Positions 6,853 to 59,641 of a stretch of DNA of 64,000 nt are shown here, piece after piece. This DNA is from Escherichia phage vB_EcoS_VAH1. The stretch lies in sequence record MK373792.1; one strand, 5' to 3'. The notes below the pieces were generated by a model. That model was not told where the DNA came from. It saw only the letters and a program-made list of their open reading frames with translations, and searched no databases. Every line of letters starts with the position of its first letter. The stretch's first letter is position 1. The translations under genes were made by a program, and so were the position numbers.

Positions 6853-7115
6853 TTTTTCTTTAATTGCTTAACTTCACGCTCAAAGCTAGCCGCTCGTCGT
6901 TCTGCCACTGCTTGATGCTCCTTAGCAAAGCGTGCCTCTTGTTTTGCTAAGTTAAAGGCCATAGCGTTCTTGTTAAGAGAATCGTACATCTTCTTCATCG
7001 CCGGAATAGACATTTTCATCAGTTGCCCCTCAAATCCTTGCATATCGAGGAGAATTGCCAGAACGTTAGCCATTTCATTTTTAGTCATGTTTTCCATTAG
7101 AATTTCCTCTCTCAT
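6849..7115 (-). CDS. hypothetical protein
   Basis: 88-aa ORF. Confidence 0.4.
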   Translation of the reverse strand: MREEILMENMTKNEMANVLAILLDMQGFEGQLMKMSIPAMKKMYDSLNKNAMAFNLAKQEARFAKEHQAVAERRAASFEREVKQLKKK

Positions 7116-7175
7116 TAATTTATGAACTTATTATACAGAATTTTAAGGCTTAAAGCAACTGAATTTTTTAATTAC

Positions 7176-7607
7176 TTACCAATCGTTAACAACACCAGAG
7201 AACTCAGAAGCAAAAACTTTTTCAAATTTTTCTGCAATTTCAGGATGATCTTTGCAGATCAGCTCAATGCATGCTTCTGGAGTCATTCCTTCATCTTCAG
7301 GATCACCATAGTATTTATCCCAAAGATCATCGGGAATGATATGCTCTGCCAAATCTTGGAAAGAGATTAACTGATAACGTTCTGCCTCCTCAGCGATAAG
7401 AATTTCGCACAGATCTTTATCTATATCGCTACGATAATCCGCAATTAATAAGGCATTGCAAGCATGACATTCCCAGACCATCAAACGTTCAGAGATAGGA
7501 TTAGACTTATCCTGAACGTAAGACTGGAACAAGGTTCGGAAAGTTGCCTTAACTTGTTCAAACTTATCTGCTGCTGCGAAAACTAGAGCTTTATCAACTT
7601 TGTTCAT
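7176..7607 (-). CDS. hypothetical acidic protein
   Basis: 143-aa ORF downstream of promoter cassette at ~7620-7680. Confidence 0.45.
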   Translation of the reverse strand: MNKVDKALVFAAADKFEQVKATFRTLFQSYVQDKSNPISERLMVWECHACNALLIADYRSDIDKDLCEILIAEEAERYQLISFQDLAEHIIPDDLWDKYYGDPEDEGMTPEACIELICKDHPEIAEKFEKVFASEFSGVVNDW

Positions 7608-7774
7608 TTTGATTCCTTCTCATCAATTTATAAAGTAATTATACAGAAACTTAAGCATTTTAGCAAATAAAACTTTCAATTAAAATGCCTAATCCTGTGC
7701 CAATAGCAATACAAATGATTATAAGTATTGCTATCGCTTGTATGCTTCGTTTAATAATAGCCTCAGCTATATAC

Positions 7775-8368
7775 TTAGACATTTATATCGCCACGTAATA
7801 CAGCAGCTACATCTTCCCCTATTTGTAATACTTCGCCAGTAGTACAATTAACTACTCTATCATAGCTAGTAAACTTACCAGACACAATATCCTCTAGTGG
7901 AATTGGAGTTTTACTCATTTCAAATGAGACATTAATATAACGTGGATCACGTAAAGAAGTAGTATGTACATGTCCGTGAATATTTAGTTTGCCACGAAGT
8001 TCATTAGGGTGCAAAGGGCAGTGAGATAGCCAAAACTTTTTGCCACCTCCAGTCTGTTTGCCTAGAGCTTGAATATCGTCATAAACTTCCGCTAAGTCCC
8101 TAATACTCAGTCCTTGACGCTCCGCATCATGATTACCCATAATGAGTTGATTAGGGACATTGTGGATAACCGACTTTAATTTGGCCAGACCTTCACGACC
8201 TACTGCAATATCTCCTAGCAAAATAAGTTTTGTTCGTTTACCAATATGCTTGGATAAAGTATCTAGAATATACTCATCGTGCTCTTTCATGTTCTTAAAC
8301 CACGGACGGAAACGTAGTGCTCCGGGGTGGTCTAAGTGCAAGTCTGACCAGAATTTAACCTTCATCAC
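7775..8368 (-). CDS. calcineurin-like metallophosphoesterase
   Basis: DLHLDHP, GDIAVGR, GNHD, GHVH motifs. Confidence 0.65.
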   Translation of the reverse strand: MMKVKFWSDLHLDHPGALRFRPWFKNMKEHDEYILDTLSKHIGKRTKLILLGDIAVGREGLAKLKSVIHNVPNQLIMGNHDAERQGLSIRDLAEVYDDIQALGKQTGGGKKFWLSHCPLHPNELRGKLNIHGHVHTTSLRDPRYINVSFEMSKTPIPLEDIVSGKFTSYDRVVNCTTGEVLQIGEDVAAVLRGDINV

Positions 8369-8653
8369 TTACTCCTTTTTTTGTATTAAATTATCAACCC
8401 AGGTAGTTAATACTCTAGTTTTAAACTCCTCGGGAGTCTCTCCTTCCTTAAGGTCTACCTCATTAAGGTAGGTAGTAAGCCTTGTTTCTATCTCTATTTC
8501 AGCAGGAGAATTAAAACAAAAATTGACTGCTATTCCAGAATATATTACTCCGGTATCTCCTTTGACGAAAGCATTAACTAATGCTCTCCAACGAAGGGCA
8601 TCAATACGCATTGCTCGTAATTCTTCTTGTACTTCTTTCATTCTATCATTCAT
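8369..8653 (-). CDS. hypothetical protein
   Basis: 94-aa ORF. Confidence 0.4.
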   Translation of the reverse strand: MNDRMKEVQEELRAMRIDALRWRALVNAFVKGDTGVIYSGIAVNFCFNSPAEIEIETRLTTYLNEVDLKEGETPEEFKTRVLTTWVDNLIQKKE

Positions 8654-9480
8654 TAAAGAATCCTCTGTACACCACAGCTATCTTCTCGAAGCGTGGTAAA
8701 TGTTGTGATTTTCCCAGTTTCATCATTAACTTGCGCAACCGTCAACTGCCCGTTGAAAACACCGCCAGTATCAAGATAAACACGGTTCTGGTATAAAATC
8801 GGGTAAGGTACTCCAGTATGCCCGTGAAACACGAAATCTACCCCTTTAACTTCTGGCACTTCTACCATGTATTTCTCTTTAAACCCTGCATAACGCTGGA
8901 AATATGAGTGTTCTTCACCATTTTTAGATAAGTGAAAACCTATTTCTTGGATTACATCTCGATCCCATAAGTATGGTTCAACATGGTATCCAGGATGGTC
9001 ATGTGGGTCTTCCTTAGATGCTTCTACTTGTGCAATAAGGTTATCCCATACTGGGGTTTCTACTTCGTTACCACATTCTTTGTACGTAAAAGGTACACCA
9101 CCATGAACAACACCATACTTTTTACCACGATGCAATACAGTCAGAAATACTGGCATTTTTTCAGCCATGTCTTCAGCAATATTTTTAATGGTATCTGCAT
9201 CTAGTTCATTCATAGCCCACATACCACCATTATACATCCAGTTAGCCCAATCTCCCACAATCATAAATTGGTCATGATTACCTCGGACACTGATAAAGCG
9301 TGGATTATACAGGAATTTGGCTAAAACTTGTAGGTTCTGCGTGCCTCGATCAATTAAATCTCCCACGCATACAACACAATCTTTCTTGCCGTTATAGCCA
9401 GCTAATTGTAGTGCATCTTCTAGTAAATCGTTACATCCATGAATATCACCAACGAAAAACAAGTTGGCGTCATCCGGCAC
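8653..9480 (-). CDS. serine/threonine protein phosphatase (PPP family, lambda-PPase-like)
   Basis: GDIHG, GDLIDRG, RGNHD, GH motifs; GTG start. Confidence 0.8.
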   Translation of the reverse strand: MPDDANLFFVGDIHGCNDLLEDALQLAGYNGKKDCVVCVGDLIDRGTQNLQVLAKFLYNPRFISVRGNHDQFMIVGDWANWMYNGGMWAMNELDADTIKNIAEDMAEKMPVFLTVLHRGKKYGVVHGGVPFTYKECGNEVETPVWDNLIAQVEASKEDPHDHPGYHVEPYLWDRDVIQEIGFHLSKNGEEHSYFQRYAGFKEKYMVEVPEVKGVDFVFHGHTGVPYPILYQNRVYLDTGGVFNGQLTVAQVNDETGKITTFTTLREDSCGVQRIL

Positions 9481-9519
9481 TACTAGAGTTTTATGTACAT
9501 TAAATTCTTTTTTTCATAA

Positions 9520-9765: not shown

Positions 9766-9862
9766 TTAATCCTCCTATCAATCTATATAAATAGTATACC
9801 AAAATTTTTAGCAAAAAGCAAGTAAAATAAAAGCCTGATCCGCTAAGATCAGGCTTGGTTTA

Positions 9863-11107: not shown

Positions 11108-11182
11108 AATATATACCTCTCTTAACTAATTTATGTATATATTATATAATAACTAGGGCTAAAAGTCAACTACTTTTTTATC

Positions 11183-11676: not shown

Positions 11677-12090
11677 TTAAACTAGTTCGACATGACCGCC
11701 ATCATAGGTACCACGTTTTATTTCATCGTGATAGTCTCCCGAAGCATTCCAATCAGCACCAAAACGAAGTTTAATGCCTAGCTCTTTACCAGCTTGTTCA
11801 AAAGCCTTTTTAACTGCCCAAAATGCTTCTAAGTCATTCCAGTCAATTTTGCCATTAATATATGGAGCAAAATCGATAGCATCCCCAGTAATATGTTTGC
11901 TTTTACTAGGATCTTTTAGAAATGAAGTACCATTAGCAATGTTCTGGGCACTTTGTGCTACTGTACGAATACCTTGCACGATTGTGAAATCGTACGGAGA
12001 TAATTCTAAAGCCCTACGAGCTACTTTTTGTAGCTCGGGCTTAACGGTAGCTAATTGTTTTTCGCTATTTTTACCAAATTTAAAACTCAT
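11677..12090 (-). CDS. lys: endolysin, zinc L-alanyl-D-glutamate peptidase (M15 family)
   Basis: 137 aa; HITGDAIDF and DGGHVE zinc-ligand motifs as in T5-type endolysin. Confidence 0.8.
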   Translation of the reverse strand: MSFKFGKNSEKQLATVKPELQKVARRALELSPYDFTIVQGIRTVAQSAQNIANGTSFLKDPSKSKHITGDAIDFAPYINGKIDWNDLEAFWAVKKAFEQAGKELGIKLRFGADWNASGDYHDEIKRGTYDGGHVELV

Positions 12091-12392
12091 ATTGACCTAC
12101 CTAAAGATCTCTGTTGTGGGGAACAGAGCTTTGCTAAATATTCCTTGAACTGTTCAGAATCGGCTGTATCTACCGGATTATCTTTCCAAGCAATACCAAT
12201 GTACCCAGCATAGATATTTTTTAGATTGAAGTATGGACAAGTGTATATGTAATTAAAAGTAACGTTTTTAAACGCAGGTATATTTAACCCCATATATTTA
12301 TTTACTCTTACACTTAAATCCGATGCGTAGTTAAAGCCCTCTAAATGACGTCTGTATAATTCAGACGTTTTATTTACCGCTTTATCGGCCAA
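12087..12392 (-). CDS. hypothetical protein
   Basis: 101-aa ORF overlapping lys start. Confidence 0.4.
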   Translation of the reverse strand: MADKAVNKTSELYRRHLEGFNYASDLSVRVNKYMGLNIPAFKNVTFNYIYTCPYFNLKNIYAGYIGIAWKDNPVDTADSEQFKEYLAKLCSPQQRSLGRSI

Positions 12393-12472: not shown

Positions 12473-12796
12473 CTACAAAACAGCATCTGCACCCGTCTGA
12501 GAGAAGAGAACCATGCTCTTTTCCCTCGCCACATTAGGGAAGTTATCTATCCTCTGGGTTTGTAAATCCTGTAAAACTGCAGACGTGGAAAAAGTCTTTA
12601 AGAATGACATCACTTCACTAGTATTACTAACAAATAAGAAAATAATGACAGCAACTAAGATAGTTAGCAGACGTTTAAGAAGCGATGCTGGGTCTTTCGC
12701 TTCTTGGAGCAGTACTGTTAATAATTGTAAGAACTTTTCCAATTTGTAACCTCCTCTAACCAGTACCATTATACTAATTTTGGAGGAAAATTTCAA
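12473..12796 (-). CDS. membrane protein (holin candidate)
   Basis: Single TM LLTILVAVIIFLFV, upstream of endolysin. Confidence 0.35.
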   Translation of the reverse strand: MKFSSKISIMVLVRGGYKLEKFLQLLTVLLQEAKDPASLLKRLLTILVAVIIFLFVSNTSEVMSFLKTFSTSAVLQDLQTQRIDNFPNVAREKSMVLFSQTGADAVL

Positions 12797-12898
12797 TGGG
12801 TTTTTAAATGTTACACTTGGAGCACAAAATTATGTCGTTGTCAAGAAGAATTTTAGATAAAAGAAAAGCCAGGGTACTTAACCCTGGCTTAAAATTAC

Positions 12899-15707: not shown

Positions 15708-16384
15708 CTTTTCATATTCCTGAATGACGTAACCGTATCAAATCCATGTGCTGCTAGGCGGTCTTTATCTGATACAGTAATCATATCAGGCTCACCAGTT
15801 CCTAGTACACCGAAGATATACTGTTCGAGAACTTGGTGCAAACGGTATAAGTTACTTTCAATTTCCTGCCACGGAATACCTGATAGGTGTAGACGCGGAT
15901 TAATTATAACCTTGAAGTATTTATTGTTATCTTTATCATTTGGAACTAATGAATCTAGAACTGCTAACGGTACTCTTAGCTCAGATAAGGCTTCTTTAGC
16001 CTTCGGGGTAACTTCTTCTTGCCACGATAAGATAGACTCTTTTGGCTTCCCTCTATTTATGTCTAGCAAAGAAAACCCTGTTGACCACCCATTCTCCTCT
16101 AAAATTTCTAACGCCTCGTCCAGGCTGAAGGTTTTTACTTGGGTATCTAGCACGTCAATGTGGTATAACCAGTAAATCTCTCCGGCTAGGAAGAAAGGCA
16201 AAATTTTAAAGTAGCCAATCTTTCCCTCGATACGAGCAATCCTACGTTCTTGCATGATCATATAGTTGCCATCATCTGGGGCTTTTATTGTTAGCTCTTC
16301 AGTTTTACGTTCCCAAACATGATCTGCATCGAATAAACTGTTCTGCAAATCATACACATCTGCAAATTTAGAAATGATTCTCAT
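15704..16384 (-). CDS. hypothetical protein
   Basis: 226-aa ORF. Confidence 0.45.
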   Translation of the reverse strand: MRIISKFADVYDLQNSLFDADHVWERKTEELTIKAPDDGNYMIMQERRIARIEGKIGYFKILPFFLAGEIYWLYHIDVLDTQVKTFSLDEALEILEENGWSTGFSLLDINRGKPKESILSWQEEVTPKAKEALSELRVPLAVLDSLVPNDKDNNKYFKVIINPRLHLSGIPWQEIESNLYRLHQVLEQYIFGVLGTGEPDMITVSDKDRLAAHGFDTVTSFRNMKR

Positions 16385-16538
16385 ATTTAATCCTCTTGCC
16401 TCAATCTATGAATATATTATACAAAAGTTTGGGCATCTATGCAACTAAAATTTTATTACAAAAATAGCCCAGTCGCAAAAGTGCAGGCTGGGCTTTGTCA
16501 TTATTTGCTTTTGCTAGTAAGTTGACTTAGTGTCAATC

Positions 16539-18510: not shown

Positions 18511-18540
18511 TTCAAACCTCTCTCATCAATTTATAAATAT

Positions 18541-18569
18541 ATTATAACAAGAAAAGAGAGGTTTAGCAA
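18541..18569 (-). promoter_or_regulatory. T5-type early promoter (one of ~20 minus-strand cassette copies)
   Basis: Minus strand TTGCTA - 17 nt - TATAAT, leader AUAAAUUGAUGAGAGAGG then ATG of 18229..18510. Confidence 0.6.
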
Positions 18570-18586
18570 ATGAATTATTTCAGAAA

Positions 18587-18934
18587 TTAGTCGTAGCACC
18601 ACCATAACCCACGCTTACGCATGTCATGATCGCGATTATAGTCGTAATTTTCTGGATCTTTCATCACGCGGTGGAGTTCTTGACGATTTCCTTGACGAAC
18701 CATTTTATTAGAGTGCCACTTAACATTCTTACTAACAGAATTCCAGCTATAACCATCCTTTTTCTCATTACGAATGGTTGCTTCTTCCATTTCCTGTTCT
18801 ACCTCATCCCAGGATTTAGCATAAGTAACACGAATGTAGTAGCCACTTGCTTTGAGGAAAGTATATCCCTGGGTGTAATTAGCTTTAGACTTCCACCACT
18901 GATCACCAGATTGTTTACGATAAGTACGGCTCAT
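18587..18934 (-). CDS. hypothetical basic/aromatic protein
   Basis: 115-aa ORF. Confidence 0.4.
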   Translation of the reverse strand: MSRTYRKQSGDQWWKSKANYTQGYTFLKASGYYIRVTYAKSWDEVEQEMEEATIRNEKKDGYSWNSVSKNVKWHSNKMVRQGNRQELHRVMKDPENYDYNRDHDMRKRGLWWCYD

Positions 18935-19055: not shown

Positions 19056-19370
19056 TTACAGATCGGGGCGTTCATCTTCGAAACAGCCTGAGCTAATATC
19101 TTCTCCGAATCCTACGAAGCCATCAAATTCATCATTTGAAATACCCATAATCATTGCTTCCATTTTTCTAATCTCCGAAATTTTCATGCCTGCTTTACTA
19201 TTCTTAAAGTGTTTGCGAGGATTCCCGCACATCCAACAAGAACAGATACAAGGAGTAGTAGTGATAATACCTAACCGTTTAGGGCTTTCTTCATGTGGGA
19301 AGACTGTCCAGTATTTCTTGCGGTTGTTCTTCACACGTTGCCGGTGATGACGTCTTAATGCTCGATCCAC
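19056..19370 (-). CDS. Cys-rich hypothetical protein
   Basis: TPCICSCWMCGNP cluster. Confidence 0.4.
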   Translation of the reverse strand: MDRALRRHHRQRVKNNRKKYWTVFPHEESPKRLGIITTTPCICSCWMCGNPRKHFKNSKAGMKISEIRKMEAMIMGISNDEFDGFVGFGEDISSGCFEDERPDL

Positions 19371-19451
19371 ACATTTCTCCTAAAACTTGGGAGATAAATG
19401 GAGTTTGCTCGACTACCTCATGTAGTTCGGAGAAATCGTACCCAAACCCCA

Positions 19452-20388: not shown

Positions 20389-20418
20389 TTGGTTTCCCTC
20401 TCATTAATTTATATAAAT

Positions 20419-20447
20419 ATTATAACAAGAAATAAGAGAGAATGCAA
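20419..20447 (-). promoter_or_regulatory. T5-type early promoter
   Basis: Minus strand TTGCAT - 17 nt - TATAAT before 20098..20388. Confidence 0.55.
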
Positions 20448-20463
20448 ATGAATTTTTAAATTT

Positions 20464-20942: not shown

Positions 20943-21018
20943 TGGAGCGGCTAGAGGGAATCGAACCCTACTCAGCGAGGCTTGGAAGGCCTGCGACACA
21001 ACCCGTGTGCTTAACCGC
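20943..21018 (-). tRNA. tRNA-Gly (anticodon TCC), tentative
   Basis: Acceptor GCGGTTA/TAGCCGC, T-loop TTCGATT, loop CTTCCAA. Confidence 0.5.
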
Positions 21019-21026
21019 TTATTGTT

Positions 21027-23668: not shown

Positions 23669-23960
23669 AAATTCTTTAGTTTACTAAGGCTATTAGCTCG
23701 GCGTAACTATAGCACCTTCGCTTCGAGCGGAAGGAACTACGTCATCTCGCAAACCCAATACACTATTCAGTTGCCGCTGAATCTAGTGGACTAATCTAGA
23801 ACCTCTCCTAAATAGTAGGGATCGTGCTTTTTGGCAGCCAGTCCTAGGTCGAGCTAATACCTTAGTGAACTATGATGAGGATTTCTCCTCATCAATTTAT
23901 ATAAATATTATAACAAGAAATTAAGCATTAAGCAACTGCGTTTTTGAAATTTCTTGGACT

Positions 23961-24919: not shown

Positions 24920-25285
24920 AATATTATTTCTTCAACCACAACAAAGATAAGCCCAGCATACTAAAGCCGCTAACTAATCCGATACATTTTTCTTCTATAG
25001 TAAAAGTATCTAGATTAAATGCTGTTATAGCTACGGGCATACACCATAATGCCATAAAAACTTGAGCTATCTTATGTTTCATTTTGCTTTCCTTCTCTTC
25101 ACTTTATAAAATATATTATACAGATAATAAAGCAGAATAGCAAATGAATTTTTAATAAATTTACTTATTGTGTAGGCCACCTGGAGGCTACCAACCCCAC
25201 GGCTGACAAAGACGTTTGCGAGACCTCTCTTAAATGCCAGAATAAACCCGCCGATCTATCGGAACCTACATAATAAGTAAACTTT

Positions 25286-27130: not shown

Positions 27131-27179
27131 TAGCTTCTCCAGTTCAATTTATGTAATTATTATATAGAACTTTTGGAAA

Positions 27180-27467
27180 CTAAGCAACTACATTTTTTAA
27201 GAATTTGATGCCTTTCTTTTTCTTCTTATATTTCCATGTTAATGGATTCTGTCGGTTATGAACGCTTGAGATCCTTGTCTCGTCAAAGTTCTTCAATATC
27301 ATGTAATCACAGGATAATTGTTCTAGTGGAATGTGATCACCGTCAAAAGCGTATACATAAGGCTGTTGACTAGCACGATAATGATAGACTTTGTTAATTC
27401 TACGTTTCAGCGACTTATCCGTGCAGTAAATAAAGAAGTTTTCAGGATGCATCAGCATCTCCTTCAA
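27180..27467 (-). CDS. hypothetical protein
   Basis: 95-aa ORF. Confidence 0.35.
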   Translation of the reverse strand: MKEMLMHPENFFIYCTDKSLKRRINKVYHYRASQQPYVYAFDGDHIPLEQLSCDYMILKNFDETRISSVHNRQNPLTWKYKKKKKGIKFLKNVVA

Positions 27468-27801: not shown

Positions 27802-27929
27802 ATATTTAGAAGCATTCAAATACTTGTTTAAACACTTTTAAATATGTTTCCAAATTAGATAACTATTATACCAGGTTTTAATGCACTGAGCAAGTCAAAT
27901 TTTGAAGAACTTGCTCAGTGCTGTATTAG

Positions 27930-28205: not shown

Positions 28206-28295
28206 TAGTTAATTCCTTCATCAATTTATATAACTATTATATCAGAAATTTAAAGTAAAAGGCAAGTACATTTTTAAAAATTCTGTTTGGAGGAG

Positions 28296-29482: not shown

Positions 29483-29571
29483 TGGCGGAAGAAGTGGGAA
29501 TCGAACCCACAAGGCTATATTTCAAACCGACAGATTAGCAATCTGCTGCAATACCGTTATGCTATTCTTCC
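29483..29571 (-). tRNA. tRNA-Ser (anticodon GCT), type II
   Basis: Perfect acceptor GGAAGAA/TTCTTCC, arm GCAGA-TTGCTAA-TCTGT, long variable arm. Confidence 0.6.
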
Positions 29572-29592
29572 GAATTTATAAGATATATTATA

Positions 29593-30162
29593 TTAGAAAT
29601 TTAGCTTCATGGCAAGAAAATTTTTCAAGTTTTCGGTAGACATCTCATCCACATCTATAGGAGAAACAAACCCATTTAATTGTCTAGCAAACTTTTCACC
29701 AGCAGGATCATTATCCCCAACAGCTACCAATTTAAAAGGTAGTAATTTCAATTGCTTTAACAATGCTTTTCCGGGGGAAGAACCCAACATTGCCAGGGCT
29801 GGATAACCAGCGTTATGTAACGCAACTGCCTTAAATACAGATTCAGCAATCAATACTACTTTTTCATCTCCATTGAGAGTTTCTAGTCCCCATACACACT
29901 GTGTAGTAGAATAAGTAAAATATCTAGCTTCAAGGGGGCACTTACCATGACCTTTTGGAGCAGAAGGATTATAAGTCTGATAGCCTCTCAACATCCCAGA
30001 GAAGTCATACAATGGGACTGTTAGCCATCCTTCCGGGCTTAACCAGCAATGATATTTATCTGTATCAAACCCTCTAGATAAGAGATGTTCTGTTAGTTCA
30101 TCAACAGTCATACTAGATTCCTCTCTCAAATTTATAAATATATTATACAGAGAATTTAGCAT
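29593..30162 (-). CDS. stand-alone Toprim-domain protein
   Basis: VVLIAESVFKAVALHNAGYPALAMLGS...KLVAVGDNDPAGEKFA matches DnaG-type Toprim; no zinc finger or helicase part. Confidence 0.5.
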   Translation of the reverse strand: MLNSLYNIFINLREESSMTVDELTEHLLSRGFDTDKYHCWLSPEGWLTVPLYDFSGMLRGYQTYNPSAPKGHGKCPLEARYFTYSTTQCVWGLETLNGDEKVVLIAESVFKAVALHNAGYPALAMLGSSPGKALLKQLKLLPFKLVAVGDNDPAGEKFARQLNGFVSPIDVDEMSTENLKNFLAMKLNF

Positions 30163-30280
30163 TCAAGCAATTGAATTTTTTAACTTTTTAGAGGAAAATC
30201 ACAGGATGCTTAAGGGTAGCAGGTAAGTGGTCAGGACCGAAATTTGTGACCCCACTAAAAATCTGGGGGCAATTTTTAAA

Positions 30281-33745: not shown

Positions 33746-34029
33746 TAGGACGGCAGTGTTACTACATAAGTGATTTCCACACCCCACTATCAGTAAATTA
33801 GAGAAGAGTTTAGGGGAGAGGTTTCAGACGCCTCATTTTACACGTTCTAGCCACTAACCGGGATTGCCGCCCCCTGTGTACTAGTTTTACAACTAACCCA
33901 CCGACTCTATTCAACGAATCTTAGTGCTCGACGCATCTTACATTAAGACAAGTTCAGCGTAATCGGCTCGCTGTTCCCTAATTTATGAATATATTATACA
34001 GAATTTAAAGGCATTTAGCAAATAAATTT

Positions 34030-34473
34030 TTAATTAAATTCGCCAGCAATCTGAGCAGCAGTACCACCATCATAACGCCCAGGAAATTCTTCCTTAATCG
34101 CTTTCATCAGCATACCTTTTGTAATTCCAGGGTTTAGCTTAACTAATTCTGCAAAGTATTTACGAATCTCAGTATCAGATAACTGAGGAGGCAGATACTC
34201 CTGCAACCACTTATTTAGAATGTATTCATACTGAGCGGACTGCAAGCTATAACTATCAAGATCTTGACCATGAAGTTTAGCTTTCATCTGGTTAATGCTT
34301 TTTAGTTGAGCTTTGAGATAAGACACAAATTGTTCAGAAGTGATGAAATCTTTATCAATACGCTGAAGATCCCCGATTATGGTCTGATAGCTTTTAGCGA
34401 CTTCTTTATCAGAACCATTAAACTTAGAATCCTGCAAAGCTCTACGCAAAACATCTAAAATATTCTCTTCCAT
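34030..34473 (-). CDS. GatB/YqeY-domain protein
   Basis: LRRALQDSKFNG...ILNKWLQEYLPPQLSDTEIRKYFAELV...GITKGMLMKAIKEEFPGRYDG follows YqeY pattern. Confidence 0.55.
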   Translation of the reverse strand: MEENILDVLRRALQDSKFNGSDKEVAKSYQTIIGDLQRIDKDFITSEQFVSYLKAQLKSINQMKAKLHGQDLDSYSLQSAQYEYILNKWLQEYLPPQLSDTEIRKYFAELVKLNPGITKGMLMKAIKEEFPGRYDGGTAAQIAGEFN

Positions 34474-34711
34474 TATTTCATTCCTAACGCTTGGTTAAAA
34501 GATTGTTCCGTCATAACTGCTGAGACTTTGGCGAAATCAAACTTTTTAGGGTTCGTAGTGATCTCAGCAACGTTAGAAGTTTTAACAGTTTTCGTAGTAC
34601 GAATACCGCGAGTGTTAACACCAATAATTACAACTGATTTCATATTTCGCTTCCTCTCATTAATTTATGGAAGTATTATACGGAAATTTAAGTATTTAAG
34701 CAAGTAAATTT

Positions 34712-35179
34712 TTAAGTTTTAGTGACAACAGGTTTATAAAACGTATGTCCCTTAATCTTAGTTGTTTTCTTAAACTTCTTTGTCCAGTAAGGTTTATCTT
34801 TACCACTATGGAAGTATAGTGCTCCATATGTAGGATCTTGTGGTAAATCAACGTAGTATATCACTCTAGCTAAATTCTTAGCGGTTTGCCAAGCCTCATC
34901 AGTTTTATCAACTTTTGGTCTCTTAGATACCCAAGAGAACTGGTTAGACTGATATACTACTTTACAGTAGGAATCTGGGAATTTACCGGAGTTTACACGG
35001 TTTTTAGTAACGTGTGCAATCGCCGTCATTCCCTTTATGCCCTCACCACGACTTTCGAAATAGATATTTTTAGCAATGCAATCTATTTCTTTTGCATCGT
35101 GCGATGCCTGACTACTAAAGCTGAAGGTAAGGGCAGCTACTAAAAGCAAAGCTGCCTTCATTCTTTTTACTCCTGCCAA
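34712..35179 (-). CDS. secreted cell-wall hydrolase (SleB/Hydrolase_2-like)
   Basis: Signal peptide; IAKNIYFESRGEG...AIAHVTKNRVNSGKFPDSYCKVVYQSNQFSW. Confidence 0.6.
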   Translation of the reverse strand: MAGVKRMKAALLLVAALTFSFSSQASHDAKEIDCIAKNIYFESRGEGIKGMTAIAHVTKNRVNSGKFPDSYCKVVYQSNQFSWVSKRPKVDKTDEAWQTAKNLARVIYYVDLPQDPTYGALYFHSGKDKPYWTKKFKKTTKIKGHTFYKPVVTKT

Positions 35180-35484: not shown

Positions 35485-35926
35485 AATAGCCTCGTTTCAT
35501 CAATTTAAAAATATATTATACAGATAACTTAGTAAATTAGCAAATACATTTTTAAATTGTGAAACTAGTAAACCGATAAACAGCCTAGAGGCGCCACAGG
35601 CCATATCTTACGAGCCATGTACCTTTGATCTAGGGTTTGAATCATCAACGAATACTTTGCATCTTTTAGCTTTAGAAGTTTAGAAGTTTGAGTTCTTTAA
35701 ACTTTTCAGCTTTCATACTTAAATGTTGATCTTTGAAGTTGTGTCGGTAATATCAACGACGCTTTGTTTTTACGTGTCAGATTAAGTGTCTGATGTAATA
35801 AACATAATCTCCAATAGATTATACTTTATAGTATGGTCAGCGGTCTTATTTAACCTCGTATTTCAACCGCTGCTGCGAGGTAAGATGCTTGGGCTTTCGT
35901 CTACCGATTTACTAGCTTTTAAATTA

Positions 35927-36801: not shown

Positions 36802-36871
36802 ATTTGTTTTCCTTTTATTGTTTTCTCAAATTTATGAATATATTATACAGAATTTTGGGGCCGGAAGCAAA

Positions 36872-37573
36872 TCAAATTTTCATTTTTTCGATCATAGCTG
36901 CAACACAATAGCTTTCAACTAAGGCATCAAATGCAGGATCATGCTTAACCGGATAGATCCCATAACGAATAGTGTCCATCTTCTCCATTTTAGCTATTGC
37001 CCAGCTAATACCTTCGGTCTCTAGAGCCTTATAACTGTATCCAGCTTGCATCCAGAGATTACGAAGAGATCGAACATTACCCAAATTCCAGAATTTCCAC
37101 GGAACTACCTCTTCATTGGTTCCAGCATGGAACGTGTTTGCAGAGTAGATAGTCATATCAAACTCTGGACCATTGCCATAATACAAAGCATTTTCGCCTA
37201 GAGCCAACTCCATAATATTTTGAGCCATAGAGAAGGCAGCATAGTTAGAGCCGAGCTTATTAGTACAGTGATGTTTACCGTCTTGAAAAGCAATCAGCTT
37301 TGGATTGCATTCCCTCATAGCTTCCATAATATGTAGAGCTGATGGACTATTTTTAGCTTGATCCATCCAGAATGCTAGAGTAGATGCCGTAACTTTAGCT
37401 CCAGAATTAAGCTGATCTTGTACATCCAAAATAACAAACACTAGACCAGGATCTTTATCAATTCCGTGCATAGCCACAAAAGCGAAAGAAGGCATTACGA
37501 TATGAGTAGTACCACAATCTCCTGGAGTTCCTAAAGATTCAATATCTAGCATACCAAATGGTTTTACTTTCAT
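36872..37573 (-). CDS. DEDDh-family 3'-5' exonuclease (DnaQ/DexA-like)
   Basis: MLDIESLG (D-x-E) near N-terminus and YPVKHDPAFDAL (H-x4-D) near C-terminus. Confidence 0.55.
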   Translation of the reverse strand: MKVKPFGMLDIESLGTPGDCGTTHIVMPSFAFVAMHGIDKDPGLVFVILDVQDQLNSGAKVTASTLAFWMDQAKNSPSALHIMEAMRECNPKLIAFQDGKHHCTNKLGSNYAAFSMAQNIMELALGENALYYGNGPEFDMTIYSANTFHAGTNEEVVPWKFWNLGNVRSLRNLWMQAGYSYKALETEGISWAIAKMEKMDTIRYGIYPVKHDPAFDALVESYCVAAMIEKMKI

Positions 37574-38395: not shown

Positions 38396-38478
38396 TATTT
38401 GTTTTCCTTTTTGTTTATCAATTTATGAAGTATATTATACGAGAATTTGAAGCGTTTAGCAAATGAATTTTTTAAAAA

Positions 38479-38757: not shown

Positions 38758-38833
38758 AAAGCCCTCCTCACTTTCAATACGAATATTATACTAAATTAGG
38801 GGGCTTTAAGCAAGAAGATTTTTAATTTATTTA

Positions 38834-39322: not shown

Positions 39323-39591
39323 CTAATTTTAAGACCCATGTCTACAAAGGCGGCTTCTCGGTAGTATTGTGAGAGATGATACCCCTTATCCGATAAGGTT
39401 TTTAGTACCGATTTAGCTGCTCCTGGCATTTCTCTAGGATTATATAGCCACCTAGCGTAAGGATTATCTCGAATAATTACTTCTGTATTTCCAGACTTAG
39501 CAGCTTCTACAATCTTTTCTTCTATAAACTTTAGAAATGCGGGTACTTCTGTTAATCCTGCAAGTTCTTGGGCTTCTTTGGCTGAAATCAT
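39310..39591 (-). CDS. hypothetical protein
   Basis: 93-aa ORF. Confidence 0.4.
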   Translation of the reverse strand: MISAKEAQELAGLTEVPAFLKFIEEKIVEAAKSGNTEVIIRDNPYARWLYNPREMPGAAKSVLKTLSDKGYHLSQYYREAAFVDMGLKISWEV

Positions 39592-39684
39592 TGTATACCT
39601 CCAATTTATAAAATATATTATAGTTAAATTTCACTAAATAAGCAAATGAAATTTAAATATAATAGCCCCGAAGGGCTATTTAAG

Positions 39685-42199: not shown

Positions 42200-42305
42200 T
42201 GATTTTCCTCTTTCTCACTATTTCAGGAATATTATAGCAAATCTGGTAGCGATTAGCAAGTAAAATTTCAAAGAAAAAGGAGACCCGAAGATCTCCTTGT
42301 TTTTA

Positions 42306-44636: not shown

Positions 44637-44780
44637 TTGGCTTTCCTTTTTATAGTTATCAGGATTTAAGGAATATTCTACTTTATTATTGGTCATTAGG
44701 CAAATAAAATTTTCTGATAGAAAAGGCCCGAGTATTTTCATACCCAGGCCCTGTATATTACCAGTCTAGTTTTTGGCCAC

Positions 44781-45741: not shown

Positions 45742-45945
45742 TCCTATAGTGTACTTCGCTTCTAACAGAGGATCAACAAAGAGATCTTGTTTATCAACTT
45801 ACAAATATATTATAACAAGGTTTACAGCAAAAAGCAAGTATAATTTTAAATAAACCTATGATATTGCTTTTAAGTAAAAAATTTACTTGCTTATAAAGGT
45901 AGAAATATGATACTAGATAATCATTTATTTATATGTAAAAATACT

Positions 45946-45959: not shown

Positions 45960-46009
45960 CAATAAAAATTGATAAAAATCAAAAGTCAAATAGTATTAGA
46001 AAAATGTAG

Positions 46010-46038
46010 TTGACGTATGGGGTGGAATTATGTATAAT
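46010..46038 (+). promoter_or_regulatory. sigma70 promoter for the rightward gene block
   Basis: TTGACG - 17 nt - TATAAT; GGGAG RBS before ATG at 46060. Confidence 0.55.
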
Positions 46039-46059
46039 ATGTGAATTAGGGAGAATTTA

Positions 46060-46731
46060 ATGGTAAGAAAGAAAATAACTACAGAAGATGTGAACTTAGC
46101 ACTTGCTCCCAGAGGAATAATTATGCTAAGCACGTATATATCAGCTAAATCCAATGCTATATTTAAGTGCTCTAATGGGCATAGTTGGGAGGCTAGAGTA
46201 GATAATGTAAAAGGTGGGAGAGGTTGCCCTTATTGTGCTAGTCGTACTTTAGATCTTAAAGAGGTAAATGAATCCTTAGCTGCTCGTGGAATAAAGATGG
46301 AAGGTAAATACATCAATTCTAAGAGTAAAATTATGTTCAGCTGTGAGAATAATCATAGGTGGGAGTCTACACTTGATAGTGTTAGAAACCATAGTTCTGG
46401 TTGTCCTATATGTTTATTAGAGAAGGATAATTATCCTACTAACGTATATATTTTAATAAGTAATGTGGGAACCAAAATAGGAGTGTCTAGCAGAACTAAA
46501 GATAGACTCAGAGATATTAAAACTTCTTCTAACATACATGATTTAAAAATATTTAAGGAATATAGCTTTTCAGATAGATCAAAAGCTATACGTATTGAAA
46601 GAGAGGTCCATTTACAGTTTAAGGAATATAATTGTCAGTACAAAGATTTTGATGGTGCTACAGAATTTTTTAATATTGAGCCAGAAGTAGTAGCAAGGTT
46701 TATTGAGGAAATAATTAATGACAGAGAATGA
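46060..46731 (+). CDS. zinc-ribbon repeat + T5orf172 (GIY-YIG-like) protein
   Basis: CSNGHSWE...GCPYCA and CENNHRWE...GCPIC ribbons; C-terminus matches 888..1268 and 14690..15301. Confidence 0.6.
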   Translation: MVRKKITTEDVNLALAPRGIIMLSTYISAKSNAIFKCSNGHSWEARVDNVKGGRGCPYCASRTLDLKEVNESLAARGIKMEGKYINSKSKIMFSCENNHRWESTLDSVRNHSSGCPICLLEKDNYPTNVYILISNVGTKIGVSSRTKDRLRDIKTSSNIHDLKIFKEYSFSDRSKAIRIEREVHLQFKEYNCQYKDFDGATEFFNIEPEVVARFIEEIINDRE

Positions 46732-48550: not shown

Positions 48551-48590
48551 CAGCCGGGTTGCTAGTCGACCTGGCTTTTATTTTATTTGC
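48551..48590 (+). terminator. rho-independent terminator after nrdD
   Basis: AGCCGGG...CCTGGCT hairpin followed by TTTTATTTTATTT. Confidence 0.5.
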
Positions 48591-48615
48591 TTTCAGCCAA
48601 AAATTTATATATAAT
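48587..48615 (+). promoter_or_regulatory. T5-type early promoter (P_N25-like)
   Basis: TTGCTT - 17 nt - TATAAT, leader ...ATAAATTTGAGAGGAG before ATG 48644. Confidence 0.6.
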
Positions 48616-48643
48616 AGATTTATAAATTTGAGAGGAGAAAGCT

Positions 48644-51547: not shown

Positions 51548-52054
51548 TTGTCGTTGACAATTTGGATGGATTATGTAATAATATATGTATTGGAGGTGAG
51601 GATGTCATTCACACAGCAAGAACTTTTAGATAACTTCCGATATGAAGATGGTAAGTTATTTAGAACTACAGGAAGAAATGCAGGGAAAGAATGTTGTGTC
51701 TCTACTGGTAACGGATATTATCGTATATCTCTAGGGAATAGGACTATGCTTCGGCATAGAGCAATATTTTTAATGCATCATGGATACTTACCTGATTTAG
51801 TAGATCATGTGAATACTGTAAAAGGTGATGATCGTATTGAAAATCTTAGAGAGCAGACAGTATCCGGTAATCTAAGAAATATCAAATATAAGAAAGGAAT
51901 GCATGTTTACCCTTCTGGTAGTAATAACTGGCAAGTAGTATTTACTATTAACCGTAAACGTATAGTTAAAGGAACATATGACAACTATGAGGTTGCATGT
52001 TCTATGGCCAAGATGTTTAGAGGTCAACTATACGGTAGGGAATCAATCCAGTAA
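51548..52054 (+). CDS. HNH homing endonuclease (HNH_3/AP2-type)
   Basis: LRHRAIFLMHHGYLPDLVDHVN...N..NL; own promoter with two TTGACA elements. Confidence 0.7.
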   Translation: MSLTIWMDYVIIYVLEVRMSFTQQELLDNFRYEDGKLFRTTGRNAGKECCVSTGNGYYRISLGNRTMLRHRAIFLMHHGYLPDLVDHVNTVKGDDRIENLREQTVSGNLRNIKYKKGMHVYPSGSNNWQVVFTINRKRIVKGTYDNYEVACSMAKMFRGQLYGRESIQ

Positions 52055-52511
52055 AATTTCATTTGCAAGGGAGTATTATTTTATAGTATAATATTCCCAT
52101 AAATGAGAGACATTAGTAAAAATTGATTTTGCTAATTTTTCTTGTTTACAATCCGCGATACGGAACAGTTAGGCTGCCCCATTAAGGGTTGTTTTAACTG
52201 TTACGTGTTAGTTTTTAAACAAATAGTTAATAGAATACTTAGCGATCTGCGTCCCGTAGGAACCCTGGTAAGGCCTCGAAGCAACCTAGATAGAGGTGGT
52301 TGTGAAGTGAGACGGGAGGAGTGAAAAACTCCGAGACGTGATTCTGTAAGTTATATTGCATCTAGTATGAGCTAGTATATGAAGCATTAGGTGAGCAAAT
52401 CTGGCTTAGCGGCCATCCTCAAGGATTTGTGCGGTATAGCAAAGCAGCAGCGCAGCGTGAGAGTGGAAGTTGCCACCCCACTTCAGTATTTGAGATTAAT
52501 TTGTTGAGAAA

Positions 52512-55379: not shown

Positions 55380-55596
55380 AAAATGGGAAACAAGGAAGTT
55401 TCCAGTAAAAGAACGTAAAGTTCCTATTTATGATACTTCGGAAAAGCTATGTAGGGTGGTACCATCTAGATTAGCTGGCATCCCTAACATATCCGAGTGG
55501 TTACTTAAACAACGGAGGACTAGCGTATCCCTTCGCATAGGGTTTGAGTTAGATAAAGTATATGCTGAACTTTCTTCTTTGCTCAAGGAACAATAA
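55354..55596 (+). CDS. hypothetical small protein
   Basis: 80-aa ORF. Confidence 0.3.
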   Translation: MLEMTVKNKKWETRKFPVKERKVPIYDTSEKLCRVVPSRLAGIPNISEWLLKQRRTSVSLRIGFELDKVYAELSSLLKEQ

Positions 55597-56168
55597 TGTT
55601 TATAAGAATTCCCGAATTTCCTGACTATGCAGTGAATGAAAATGGAGAGGTGTACTCTTTTCTCTCCTACAAGTTTCTTACTCCAGGTCAAAATACTGCT
55701 GGGTACTTACAAGTTAATTTAATGAAGGACGGCACCCCTATAAATGTGAGGGTGCATAGGTTAGTAGCTTATTGTTTTGGGCTACTTCCTGGGTTAGAAT
55801 CAGAATTGGTAGTAGACCATATAAACGATGATAAGTTAGATCCTAGACTATCTAACTTGCAGGTATTAACCTACAGAGCTAATGCAATAAAATTTCATAA
55901 TAAAAATTGGAGAGAACATCCAGATTTCCTAGTAGAAATTAAGAAATTAGAAAGTATGGGCATAACTAAAGCAGCTGCATCTTATAGGCGCAGGGCTATG
56001 TTTAAATATATTGTGGCTGTTCCCTCTAGTGATACTCTAACCTTAGAATTAATAGAATCTACATATCAGAAAACCAATTCTTGGGGAAAAACTGCTAGGG
56101 CTCTAGGCTTTAACAGTGCTCCTGCTATTAGATACAGGTATAATAAGCTGAAAGCAGCTTCTTTATAA
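55596..56168 (+). CDS. HNH homing endonuclease (NUMOD4/HNH_3-type)
   Basis: IPEFPDYAVNENGEVYS...GYLQVNL...HRLVAYCF...VDHINDDKLD..SNLQVL. Confidence 0.7.
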   Translation: MFIRIPEFPDYAVNENGEVYSFLSYKFLTPGQNTAGYLQVNLMKDGTPINVRVHRLVAYCFGLLPGLESELVVDHINDDKLDPRLSNLQVLTYRANAIKFHNKNWREHPDFLVEIKKLESMGITKAAASYRRRAMFKYIVAVPSSDTLTLELIESTYQKTNSWGKTARALGFNSAPAIRYRYNKLKAASL

Positions 56169-56174
56169 ATTTTC

Positions 56175-56234
56175 TTGCTTTACGATGAATTTTTCTGTAT
56201 AATAGATTCATAAATTTGAGAGAGGAGTTTAAAT
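56175..56234 (+). promoter_or_regulatory. T5 P_N25-like early promoter and leader
   Basis: TTGCTT(56175-56180) - 17 nt - TATAAT(56198-56203), leader ATAAATTTGAGAGAGGAGTTTAAAT then ATG; matches the classic T5 N25 promoter as recalled. Confidence 0.8.
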
Positions 56235-57183: not shown

Positions 57184-57286
57184 CTACTTAAAAATTTCAG
57201 TTGCTTAATCCTACAATTCTTGATATAATATTCTCATAGTTTGAAAGAACTATTCTGTTTAATTCTTAATTAAGGAAATATAAAAT

Positions 57287-57697: not shown

Positions 57698-57734
57698 TAT
57701 TTAGATAAATCCACCAACAAAAGGAACTATAGCT

Positions 57735-58031: not shown

Positions 58032-58042
58032 GAAAACAATTA

Positions 58043-58066
58043 GCCCCTATATGGGGCTTTTTGTGT
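58043..58066 (+). terminator. rho-independent terminator
   Basis: GCCCC-TATAT-GGGGC hairpin + TTTTTGTG. Confidence 0.6.
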
Positions 58067-58081
58067 ATTTGGGATATGTAA

Positions 58082-58390
58082 ATGAGCGAACAGGTAAATC
58101 AAAACTATGAAGGACACGTTGATGACCAGTCCATCATACTTTGGGAGAAGGAGGGAGAACAAGTAAGATTAACAGTATCTGAATTTCGTGGGAATCTATA
58201 CATGGGTATTCGTTACTGGCTTCTTGATATTAATGATGAATGGTTTCCAACGAAATCTGGCTTCTCTTTTCCTTACACCCTAGAAACAACATCACAGCTT
58301 TTCTATGCGTTTACACAGATTCTTAGCGAATCTGAGGTTTTACATGAAGTACAGAAACGAGCTGAAGAACTCAAAGCCAAGAATGCCTAG
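58082..58390 (+). CDS. hypothetical acidic protein
   Basis: 102-aa ORF. Confidence 0.4.
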   Translation: MSEQVNQNYEGHVDDQSIILWEKEGEQVRLTVSEFRGNLYMGIRYWLLDINDEWFPTKSGFSFPYTLETTSQLFYAFTQILSESEVLHEVQKRAEELKAKNA

Positions 58391-58477
58391 TTCTTGGCTT
58401 TTTCTTTATAAATGTATTTGCTTTCAACTCAGTTTTGTTATATAATATTTATATAAATTAATGAGAGATATAAATAA

Positions 58478-59303
58478 ATGACCAATGTAAAAGAATTTAT
58501 TAAACGCTGTCAAGAAGCATATTATCAAGGTATGTCTTTAATCTCTGATGAGGAATATGATTGCCTAGTAAAACGCTTCCCGTTAGAGGAAGAGATCGGG
58601 CCTAAGGGTGATATTCCACATCTGTATCGTATGTATTCTTTACAGAAAGTTTACTATAACCGTGGAGATAAACCACCATTCAATCCTTTAGGTCAGGTGG
58701 AAACCGATAAGTTAGATGGTTGTGCAATTTCTCTGCTATATATTTAATGGCGAATTTGTTCAAGCACTAACTCGTGGTAATGGTATTCTGGGGAATGATG
58801 TCACAAGCAACGTAAGATTGCTGAACATCCCTAAAAAGATTTCCCAAAAAGTACCTACTCAAATCACTGGTGAAGTTCTAATTACAAAAGAAGTAGAAAA
58901 TAAACGTAACTTTGCCTCTGGTGCTATTAACCTCAAAGATAGTGATGCTTTTGTACAACGTATCGGGGAAGGTGGTTTAATCTTCGTTGCATACGGTATC
59001 CAGTGTTCTGCTGAATCTGTAGGTATTACAGAAGCGTATTTAAAAGATATGCTTTGGCTAGAGAATGAGAACTTCTTAACAGTTGTTATGTGCGTTCCTC
59101 CTTTAAAATGGATTCCGACGGACGGTAAAGTTGTTCGTATTAATGACAACAACAAATTCTTCCGGGAAGGCTGGACTAATAAATTCCCTCGTGGGGCATT
59201 CGCTATTAAAGAGGATGAAGAAGGCGAGATTACAACTCTTACTAAAGTTGAATGGCAGGTAGGGGCTTCTGGTAAAGTTCCAGTTGGTTATTTCGAACCG
59301 TAA
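58478..59303 (+). CDS. lig: NAD-dependent DNA ligase, adenylation part, internally frameshifted (track ORFs 58478..58747 and 58716..59303)
   Basis: KLDG adenylation lysine in first ORF; TRGNGILGNDVTSN and onward in second ORF; junction at CTATATATTTAATGG. Confidence 0.75.
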
Positions 59304-59309
59304 TAATTG

Positions 59310-59453
59310 ATTGATGCCACAATTGTTAAAGCGACTCTTAATAACGTTGATTATATTAACTCTCTCGATCTAGAGATCGGTTGCCAGATTCGAGTGATTC
59401 GTGCTGGTGGTGTAATCCCGTGCATAGTAGAGCGAGTATACGATTATACATAA
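59310..59453 (+). pseudogene. ligase OB-fold remnant, in frame after tandem TAA TAA stops
   Basis: [44 protein letters not shown] matches the LigA OB domain (ATLHN...RAGDVIP) but has no conventional start. Confidence 0.5.
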
Positions 59454-59641
59454 CCCTTTGCTACCCATCTACCGTATCGGAATTATGGTTATTGACATTT
59501 CGCCGCTTAGGTATATATACTATTATCATTCAGTTGAGGGATAGAAAGTTATGGCGAGGGTAAGCAAAGTTAGTTAAAATTGTAGTTGCTAAATGCTTAA
59601 ATACTTGCTATAATATTTATATAAATTGATAAGGAAGAAAT

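Follow-up and report, generated by a model that had tools for sequence, protein, structure and literature searches.

T5-type promoter units with short leaders in a 64-kb window of Escherichia phage vB_EcoS_VAH1

The 64,000-nucleotide (nt) stretch of Escherichia phage vB_EcoS_VAH1 DNA considered here (sequence record MK373792.1; the whole stretch is called the window below) contains 32 copies of a promoter unit of about 65 nt, most of them placed shortly before the start codon of a gene. Starting at the end of the left terminal repeat, the window takes in the tRNA region and the nucleotide-metabolism genes and reaches into the replication genes; its G+C content is 38.7%. By its sequence, the window is that of a T5-like phage (Tequintavirus, Demerecviridae). 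In a DNA comparison of the segment 55000-60000, which matched 476 phage records, T5 shared 97% identity across 88% of the segment, and Salmonella phage SB9 and Escherichia phage DaisyDussoix shared 93-95% identity. An initial annotation made from the letters of the window had already called it T5-like, and the identity to T5 near 55-60 kb bears this out. All promoter copies sit between the terminal-repeat end and the replication genes and have the same orientation as the downstream open reading frames (ORFs), tRNAs, and stable RNAs. Those up to 45837 are located on the minus strand, and those from 46010 onwards on the plus strand.

Census and anatomy of the units

The pattern TTGCTW-N17-TATAAT is matched exactly at 21 places in the window; dinucleotide-preserving shuffles contain 0.06 such matches on average and 2 at most. 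The initial annotation had listed 26 copies of a promoter with its leader, and a copy is indeed present at all 26 coordinates. Twenty-one of these are exact and five deviate slightly. Namely, the -10 hexamer is TATACT at 9793-9821, while the -35 hexamer is TTGCAT at 16416-16444 and 20419-20447, TTGCCA at 29587-29615, and TTGCCT, with a spacer of 18 nt, at 28236-28265. A relaxed scan (TTGNNN, 16-18 nt, TANAAT) plus inspection of the remaining coordinates of that list accounted for all 26. The full set of 32 copies, aligned on the -10 hexamer, comprises the 26 listed earlier and six variants that were absent from the list (11141-11169, 12768-12796, 27865-27893, 44675-44703, 46010-46038, and 52063-52092). 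The spacer is 17 nt long in 30 of the aligned copies and 18 nt long in the other two.

The low G+C content of the window would favour chance matches in AT-rich DNA, and a generic sigma-70 scan of the window returned fewer loose matches than were obtained in shuffled sequence (39 versus 55). The specific pattern is, however, enriched as given above, its conservation reaches beyond the hexamers, the strand of the copies agrees with that of the genes, and the copies are conserved at corresponding positions in T5. Enrichment, extended conservation, strand agreement, and positional conservation in T5 refute a chance origin of the copies.

Conservation in the 32 aligned copies extends from -47 to about +17 relative to the predicted transcription start. 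The first information peak, at -47 to -37, is an A-tract (TnAAAA(A)TTTA), in which A occupies positions -45 to -42 in 27-30 copies and T occupies position -40 in 28 copies. The next peaks are the -35 hexamer TTGCTw (-35 to -30), an AT-rich stretch of the spacer with the sequence AAATTTC (-21 to -15), and the -10 hexamer TATAAT (-12 to -7). A weak preference for G/C is seen in the spacer at -26 to -24. Each position of the -10 hexamer is conserved in 31-32 copies, and the nucleotide next to it is A in 30. The remaining peaks are the discriminator at -6 to -1 (ATATTy; column consensus A T (T/A) T T T) and the first transcribed positions, +1 to +13. The latter begin with a start block, ATAAATT(G/T/A)A, which gives the predicted transcript start ATAAATTGA, and include part of a purine- and G-rich stretch at +9 to +17.

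With at most one mismatch, ATAAATT starts 6-7 nt past the -10 hexamer in 24 of the 32 copies. The window contains 50 ATAAATT heptamers, 21 of which are found no more than 16 nt past a -10 hexamer. The strict composite motif TTGCT-N18-TATAAT-N6-ATAAATT occurs 13 times in the window. Among the matches listed from IMG/VR, contigs with several occurrences of this composite are almost all 104-128 kb long, which is the size of T5-like genomes; matching contigs of other sizes mostly have a single occurrence.

The upstream A-tract resembles an UP element by sequence, and the upstream region of the T5 promoter N25 is named an UP element in the literature (PMC12464699). In two copies (9821 and 48587), the A-tract is replaced by the T-run of a terminator. 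The regions 9793-9841 (minus strand) and 48567-48615 (plus strand) have the upstream sequence GGCTTTTATTTTAyTTGCTTT in common, with this T-run in place of the A-tract. They look like terminator-promoter composites, since T5 terminators are annotated over both counterparts.

Correspondence with T5 and origin of the similarity

The T5 record AY543070 annotates 75-base-pair (bp) promoter features all through the corresponding region. Their mutual alignment gives the consensus TTAAAAATTTAnTTGCTT...GTATAATATnTTTATAAATTnAnGAGA, which is the same as that of the window copies. Convincing alignment to these features was obtained for 28 of the 32 copies, 15 of which are counterparts of named promoters (Table 1). 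Identity is 100% across the 75 bp for seven of the named promoters, among them P-H207, P-N26, P-K28a, P13b, P14b, and P15a. Three copies (39617, 46010, and 52063) have only a diverged positional counterpart in T5. When the features of AY543070 were mapped to the window, the copy at 44675 was the only one without a counterpart among them, and no T5 match within three mismatches was found for the site 44675-44703.

The initial annotation had recognized the T5 promoter P_N25 in the 56175 copy. This identification proved correct: the feature 'promoter P-N 25' precedes gene D2 in T5 as well. Compared with the T5 promoter, the window copy has one additional T in its leader and a different sequence in the A-tract and in the distal spacer half. 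A gene that T5 lacks at this place encodes a 190-amino-acid homing endonuclease with HNH_3 and NUMOD4 domains (55596-56168, plus strand). It is an insertion bounded by the T5.110 counterpart and by about position -40 of P-N25. The upstream A-tract and the distal spacer half differ from those of T5 because of this insertion alongside the promoter. The T5 gene hegI (T5 62322-62815) is absent from the window.

The initial annotation had proposed a comparison with the T5 early promoters N25, H207, and D/E20; counterparts of P-N25, P-H207, and P-D/E33 were found at the corresponding positions. In general, the promoters of the window are like the T5 early promoters in their genome positions, downstream genes, and extended consensus. 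They differ by small substitutions, by the altered upstream part of P-N25, by the divergence of copies 39617, 46010, and 52063, and by the placement of copy 42231 directly before nrdB. In T5, hegH sits between the -10 hexamer of this promoter and nrdB. The window lacks hegH, so that the promoter at 42199-42279 (minus strand) drives nrdB directly.

The copies are thus ordinary and belong to the long-known type of T5 early promoter that is followed by a short leader. Such promoters of T5 have been studied since the 1980s and underlie commercial expression vectors; they also provide, with N25, the standard model of promoter escape. These promoters (P-N25, P-N26, P-K28a, P-H207, P-F30, P-D/E33, and P11-P16/17) were reportedly defined by Gentz and Bujard in 1985. 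In another T5-like genome, that of phage AKFV33, 32 'T5-like promoters' were described, with TTGCTw, a spacer of 17-18 bp, TATAATA, AAAAATT at -43, and TAAATT at +1 (Niu et al., 2012; PMC3326045). Alignment of all copies in the window, as suggested in the initial annotation, gave the same consensus. The AKFV33 paper leaves the promoter and translation layers of the leader unseparated (PMC3326045).

With the consensus sigma-70 promoter of E. coli carrying an UP element (TTGACA-17-TATAAT), the units have in common the perfect -10 hexamer, the optimal 17-nt spacer, and the A-rich upstream tract. They differ from it in the -35 hexamer, TTGCTw, which fits the consensus at 3 of 6 positions, and in the extra conservation of the discriminator and of positions +1 to +13. 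Two further T5 promoters, P12 and P-K28b, have counterparts on the plus strand at 30287-30315 (TTGACA-N17-TAAAGT) and at about 59491-59520 (TTGACA and a TATACT-type -10 hexamer), respectively. As judged from their sequences, these two are a second promoter flavour, with a consensus -35 hexamer, an imperfect -10 hexamer, and no ATAAATT.

Table 1. Promoter copies in the window. Signed positions are relative to the predicted +1; T5 percentages refer to the 75-bp T5 promoter features.
Feature	Interval	Strand	Sequence characters	Start codon and downstream gene	Match to T5
promoter	7104..7170 (-47 to +20)	-	-35 TTGCTT from 7158; -10 ends 7130; +1 ~7123	ATG +27 (7097); T5.032 counterpart	100% over 75 bp (T5 16245-16319)
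P-F30 counterpart	7612..7678	-	+1 ~7631	ATG +25; T5.033 counterpart	98.7% over 75 bp
promoter	9767..9833	-	-10 TATACT; upstream terminator T-run for A-tract	ATG +22; T5.036 counterpart	94.7% (T5 18550-18624)
promoter	11115..11181	-	-35 TTGACT; ATAAATT kept	ATG +28; T5.038 counterpart	100% (T5 19368-19442)
variant promoter	12742..12808	-	-35 TTGAAA; without ATAAATT	TTG +20; holin-like T5.041 counterpart	100% (T5 20998-21071)
promoter	16390..16456	-	TTGCAT; start block ATAGATT; terminator-like hairpin just upstream	ATG +26; T5.047 counterpart	100% (T5 24443-24517)
promoter	18515..18581	-		ATG +25; T5.053 counterpart	96% (T5 26722-26796)
P11 counterpart	20393..20459	-	TTGCAT	ATG +25; T5.058 counterpart	93.3%
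P13b counterpart	23881..23947	-		without ATG; stable RNA (T5 RNA2H) and tRNA-Ala/Leu	100%
P13a counterpart	25089..25155	-		ATG +27; T5.066 counterpart	89.3%
P14b counterpart	27133..27199	-		ATG +23; T5.070 counterpart	100%
P14a counterpart	27839..27905	-	TTGCTC; without ATAAATT	tRNA-Tyr/Glu/Phe cluster	97.1%
P15c counterpart	28210..28277	-	TTGCCT; 18-nt spacer	ATG +25; T5.072 counterpart	97.2%
P15b counterpart	29561..29627	-	TTGCCA; ATAAATT kept	tRNA-Ser(GCU) from about +9	97.4%
P15a counterpart	30116..30182	-		ATG +25; T5.076 counterpart	100%
P16-17 counterpart	33967..34033	-		without ATG; stable RNA (T5 RNAX) and tRNA-Arg	94.5% over 55 bp
P-D/E33 counterpart	34649..34715	-		ATG +26; T5.082 counterpart	94.7%
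promoter	35489..35555	-		ATG +25; T5.084 counterpart	97.3% (T5 43067-43141)
promoter	36816..36882	-		ATG +35; T5.086 counterpart	94.5% (T5 44393-44467)
P-H207 counterpart	38408..38474	-		ATG +33; T5.089 counterpart	100% over 75 bp
promoter	38759..38825	-	without ATAAATT	ATG +22; T5.090 counterpart	98.7% (T5 46337-46411)
promoter	39591..39657	-	terminator-like hairpin upstream	ATG +20 (ORF 39310-39591)	weak match only (T5 46937-47011)
promoter	42205..42271	-	without ATAAATT	ATG +26 (nrdB)	98% over upstream 51 bp only of T5 feature
weak promoter-like site	44649..44715	-	TTGCCT-N17-TAGAAT after terminator-like hairpin	ATG +33 (44636)	no T5 promoter annotation
promoter	45783..45849	-	start block GTAAGTTGA; 61-nt leader	GTG +62; phoH-like gene	90.1% (T5 53638-53712)
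variant promoter	45998..46064	+	TTGACG; without ATAAATT; first plus-strand unit of divergent pair	ATG +16 (ORF 46060-46731)	
promoter	48575..48641	+	terminator T-run for A-tract	ATG +23; T5.100 counterpart	95.5% (T5 55708-55782)
promoter	52051..52118	+	TTGCAA; 18-nt spacer; start block ATAAATGAGAG	~400-nt leader to origin-binding-protein gene at 52512	
P-N25 counterpart	56163..56229	+	+1 ~56210	ATG 56235 (+26); gene D2	identical to T5 about -22 to +20
P-N26 counterpart	57189..57255	+	start block ATAGTTTGA	ATG +52; gene D3	100%
promoter	58406..58472	+		ATG +26 (ligA)	100% (T5 65284-65358)
P-K28a counterpart	59574..59640	+		ATG +25 (ligB)	100%

The likeness of the copies might also reflect a mobile or duplicated regulatory cassette, that is, a single promoter-leader segment that was copied or homogenised by gene conversion. 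Early promoters of T4-type phages are likewise numerous, near-identical, strong promoters of the host polymerase with conservation beyond the hexamers. Promoter/stem-loop cassettes of such phages were reportedly proposed by Arbiol et al. in 2010 to undergo modular shuffling. The window resembles the T4-type arrangement in that terminator hairpins often stand just upstream of the promoters. It differs in the consensus of the -35 hexamer and the start site, and no sign of movement or recombination of the units is seen in the window.

Copying was assessed by comparing the pairwise identity of the copies with that in 1000 within-column shuffles, using 75 columns, 50 of which are low-information columns (far upstream, mid-spacer, and +14 to +35). 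Over all 75 columns, the spread of pairwise identity was above that of the shuffles (standard deviation 6.1 versus 3.9), because the copies differ in how close they are to the consensus. This spread is one of the points that speak for a copied cassette, as does the agreement of P13b and P-K28a at 57 of 75 positions. Others are the existence of two sub-variants with linked changes (CTTGTTATAAT-ATTTAT versus TTCTGTATAAT-ATATTC) and the fact that differences in gene content from T5 adjoin promoters (the HNH gene at about -40 of P-N25 and hegH by nrdB). The 50 low-information columns, however, show no excess of identity: the maximum was 29 (shuffles: mean 27.5, 99th percentile 32), and the standard deviation was 3.54 (shuffles: 99th percentile 3.60). 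Also, T5 has a separate counterpart for every copy at the matching position, and only two of the ten T5 HNH genes are located directly next to a promoter.

Given the lack of excess in the low-information columns, copy-paste is rejected as the main cause of the similarity, and we regard a mobile or homogenised cassette as very unlikely. Selection on function together with vertical descent explains the similarity best, and recent duplication or conversion is not needed. The set of copies predates the split of the window phage and T5, since the T5 counterparts are specific to each position. One cassette reused in front of about 25 genes, as the initial annotation had put it, is not to be understood as a segment that was copied; identity is confined to the informative positions. 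The idea that promoters are preferred insertion points of homing endonucleases was rejected as well. Two to three such cases adjoin promoters, but with the above proportion of T5 HNH genes no general pattern emerges.

Two layers of the leader and the proposed function

A start codon lies nearby (+16 to +35, median +25) in 25 of the 32 copies, including 21 of the 26 sites listed earlier. A Shine-Dalgarno (SD) core is present in all 25 (GAGG, GGAG, AGGA, or longer; only GAG in one of them). Its onset has a median of +13, and it precedes the start codon by 5-10 nt (median 7). The first 45 nt of these transcripts form much less structure than random sense-strand 45-mers do (-3.0 versus -6.1 kcal/mol, p = 3e-6). 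A search against Rfam detected tRNAs only and no RNA family at the leaders. The remaining seven copies have no nearby start codon. The leader followed by ATG that the initial annotation had described is thus present at 21 of its 26 sites. At the other five, a stable RNA or tRNA follows (23907, 29587, and 33993), or the start codon is located at +62 (45809) or +52 (57201).

The distance of ATAAATT is fixed to the -10 hexamer and not to the start codon, which varies from +16 to +62. The block is kept where no ORF follows, as in the P15b counterpart with its tRNA-Ser at about +9 and in the P13b and P16-17 counterparts, which precede stable RNAs and tRNAs. It is also kept before leaders of 52 to 62 nt. 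The proportion of purines at +8 to +20 is 0.80 in copies with a nearby ATG and 0.72 in those without, the background being 0.53. The G content of the same positions is 0.38 with a nearby ATG versus 0.22 without (p = 0.002). ATAAATT and the purine-richness are thus part of the promoter, whereas the G-rich core is a translation element; the former assignment is made because the block persists ahead of RNA genes.

The conserved downstream sequence could alternatively be a translation-initiation region only, consisting of SD and enhancer and having no role in transcription. The position of the SD core 5-10 nt before a start codon in 25 copies, the unusually unstructured leaders, and the higher G content near an ATG would all agree with this. 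Such an explanation is contradicted by the presence of ATAAATT at the three RNA-gene copies and by the location of the block, which lies 5' of the SD and is spaced from the -10 hexamer while the start codon moves. In addition, the transcribed region of N25 changes RNA output in vitro without translation (PMC12464699). We consider a purely translational role to be extremely improbable. The promoter coupled to a purine-rich translation-initiation region, as proposed in the initial annotation, is correct with respect to the compact SD leader, but the initial 8 nt do not act as a translation signal.

The units are, with high confidence, early-class promoters of a T5-like phage that serve the host sigma-70 polymerase and carry a minimal SD-bearing leader. 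By analogy with the T5 literature, it is proposed that sigma-70 polymerase is used, that transcription starts at the predicted +1, that the transcribed region acts in promoter escape, and that the timing is early. In this scheme, the UP-element-like A-tract at -45 to -37 should aid recruitment of the polymerase. The host sigma-70 polymerase would then read TTGCTw, the 17-nt spacer with its AT-rich stretch at -21 to -15, TATAAT, and the discriminator ATATTy. Transcription is expected to start with the A of ATAAATT(G/T/A)A, and the sequence that follows is purine-rich. The transcribed block would act within the promoter by speeding promoter escape, as in N25. Conceivably, TATAAA/TAAATT at -1 to +7 might also form a second -10-like element at which a sigma-70-dependent pause close to the promoter would occur. 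In the copies that precede protein genes, where the SD core lies at about +13 and translation starts at about +25, the mRNA leader would be nearly all unstructured ribosome-binding site. The copies would be alike both through a common functional optimum and through descent from the matching promoter of the T5 lineage.

Several published observations on T5 are relevant to this scheme. The sequence TATAATAGATTCAT was numbered -12 to +2 of N25, and the discriminator ATATT was found to be common to all early T5 promoters (Klimuk et al., 2020; PMC7472727). The N25 numbering, with +1 on the A of ATAAATT, agrees with the start about 7 nt past TATAAT given in the initial annotation. N25 was described as TTGctt, a 17-bp spacer, and TATAAT, with an UP element, an additional AT-rich spacer element, and a 6-bp discriminator (Hsu and Han, 2025; PMC12464699). 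According to the same authors, N25 is escape-limited and its native initial transcribed sequence evolved for faster escape. In the variant N25anti, in which +3 to +20 are changed, productive synthesis is about 10-fold lower, a result that Hsu and Han credit to Kammerer et al. (1986) (PMC12464699). Ppol of T5 also has primer-extension support (PMC7472727).

A number of points weigh against the assignment of all copies to early-class promoters. The class is not uniform: the ATAAATT block is lacking in 8 of the 32 copies, and several have variant -35 or -10 hexamers. The site 44675-44703 is weak, and the T5 counterpart aligned to it is degenerate (TAAACT). The generic sigma-70 scan was uninformative; it misses the copies with TTGCTT under its 4-of-6 rule, because TTGCTT fits only three of the six positions of TTGACA. 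In T5, primer-extension products in infected cells were obtained for 11 of 19 promoters defined in vitro, and the product of P15A, although of the early class, was barely visible (PMC7472727). For this reason, the designation 'very strong' used in the initial annotation need not hold in vivo for every copy.

The ATAAATT block is present in 23 of 29 TTGC-type promoters versus one of seven TTGA-type promoters (Fisher p = 0.003). The named late promoters of T5, P-G25 and P-J5, have TTGATA/TTGACA and no ATAAATT; the block is present in P31A, P31B, and the lpp promoter. A further reading is that ATATTy plus ATAAATTGA (about -6 to +8), linked to the TTGCT -35 hexamer, is mainly a class label by which a phage factor recognizes early promoters for shut-off at the early-to-late switch, and so would do more than speed promoter escape. 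Candidates for this factor are gpT5.026, D5, or another protein acting on the polymerase and discriminator. The link between TTGC and ATAAATT and the lack of the block in both named late promoters are in line with such a label. According to Klimuk et al. (2020; PMC7472727), it is chiefly the discriminator that sets early promoters apart from late ones. The product of T5 gene 026 binds the host RNA polymerase and influences the early-to-late switch; it weakens binding of the polymerase to the -5/+2 non-template segment, and its loss results in more early and fewer late transcripts (PMC7472727). The window encodes a counterpart of this gene, as judged by position and length (ORF 4722-5183, minus strand, 153 amino acids).

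The native transcribed region of N25, however, already has an escape effect that is independent of any factor (PMC12464699), and the late class is represented by two named promoters only. A class label is regarded as a doubtful, though not negligible, possibility, and one that would supplement the early-promoter explanation and not replace it. The approximately 24 copies with the block and approximately 8 copies without it could be used as a natural test set.

As a discovery, the units are of little significance; the same consensus has already been published for T5-like phages. What is added here is modest: the promoter-intrinsic start block is cleanly told apart from the Shine-Dalgarno layer, and its presence is linked to the form of the -35 hexamer.

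Annotation consequences and other loci

The results are useful for genome annotation, as they fix the operon structure of the early region and back the choice of start codons. Many of the predicted transcripts contain the motif TKATGAGAG, by which an ATG comes to lie at +9 to +11. In the case of the 7158 copy (7097-7123, minus strand), the +9 ATG and the real start at +27 share one reading frame, and the longest-ORF call (7115) is for this reason five codons too long in comparison with T5.032.

The longest ORF of nrdA (811 amino acids, start at 44741, as in T5.096) reads through the terminator-like hairpin GGCCTGGG...ACTCGGGCC, followed by TTTTCT, and through the weak site 44675-44703. The ATG at 44636 (minus strand) has AAAGGAAAG as a Shine-Dalgarno sequence, and the protein starting there begins with MSHRIEKVIKRDG. 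Translation of nrdA probably starts at this ATG, 35 codons into the annotated ORF, which would mean that the annotation is over-extended. The counterpart of the holin-like T5.041 (218 amino acids in T5) is split into ORFs 12087-12392 and 12473-12742 (minus strand) by a 1-nt deletion in a T-run near 12481 (TTTT versus TTTTT in T5). The frame may truly be shifted, or the homopolymer may have been misread in sequencing.

The transcript of the P13b counterpart would open with a perfect 9-bp hairpin with a GAAA loop (TGATGAGGA-GAAA-TCCTCATCA; 23870-23900, minus strand). This hairpin is located upstream of the region matching the T5 stable RNA2H and is not followed by a start codon.

At 842-871 (minus strand), TTGACA-N18-TATAAT occurs without any mismatch; its -10 hexamer is preceded by TGT, and the site is directed to the terminal-repeat end of the window. 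No ORF of at least 60 amino acids lies downstream of this promoter-like site, and it has no match within three mismatches in T5 5000-40000. A small hairpin, AAAACAA-CTC-TTGTTTT, is located downstream of it.

Additionally, the Rfam tRNA model revealed tRNA-like elements at 29402-29476 and 33683-33754 (both on the minus strand), which were unreported by ARAGORN. The former corresponds in position to T5 tRNA-Ile2(CAU), and the latter lies inside the region matching the 719-nt 'RNAX' of T5.

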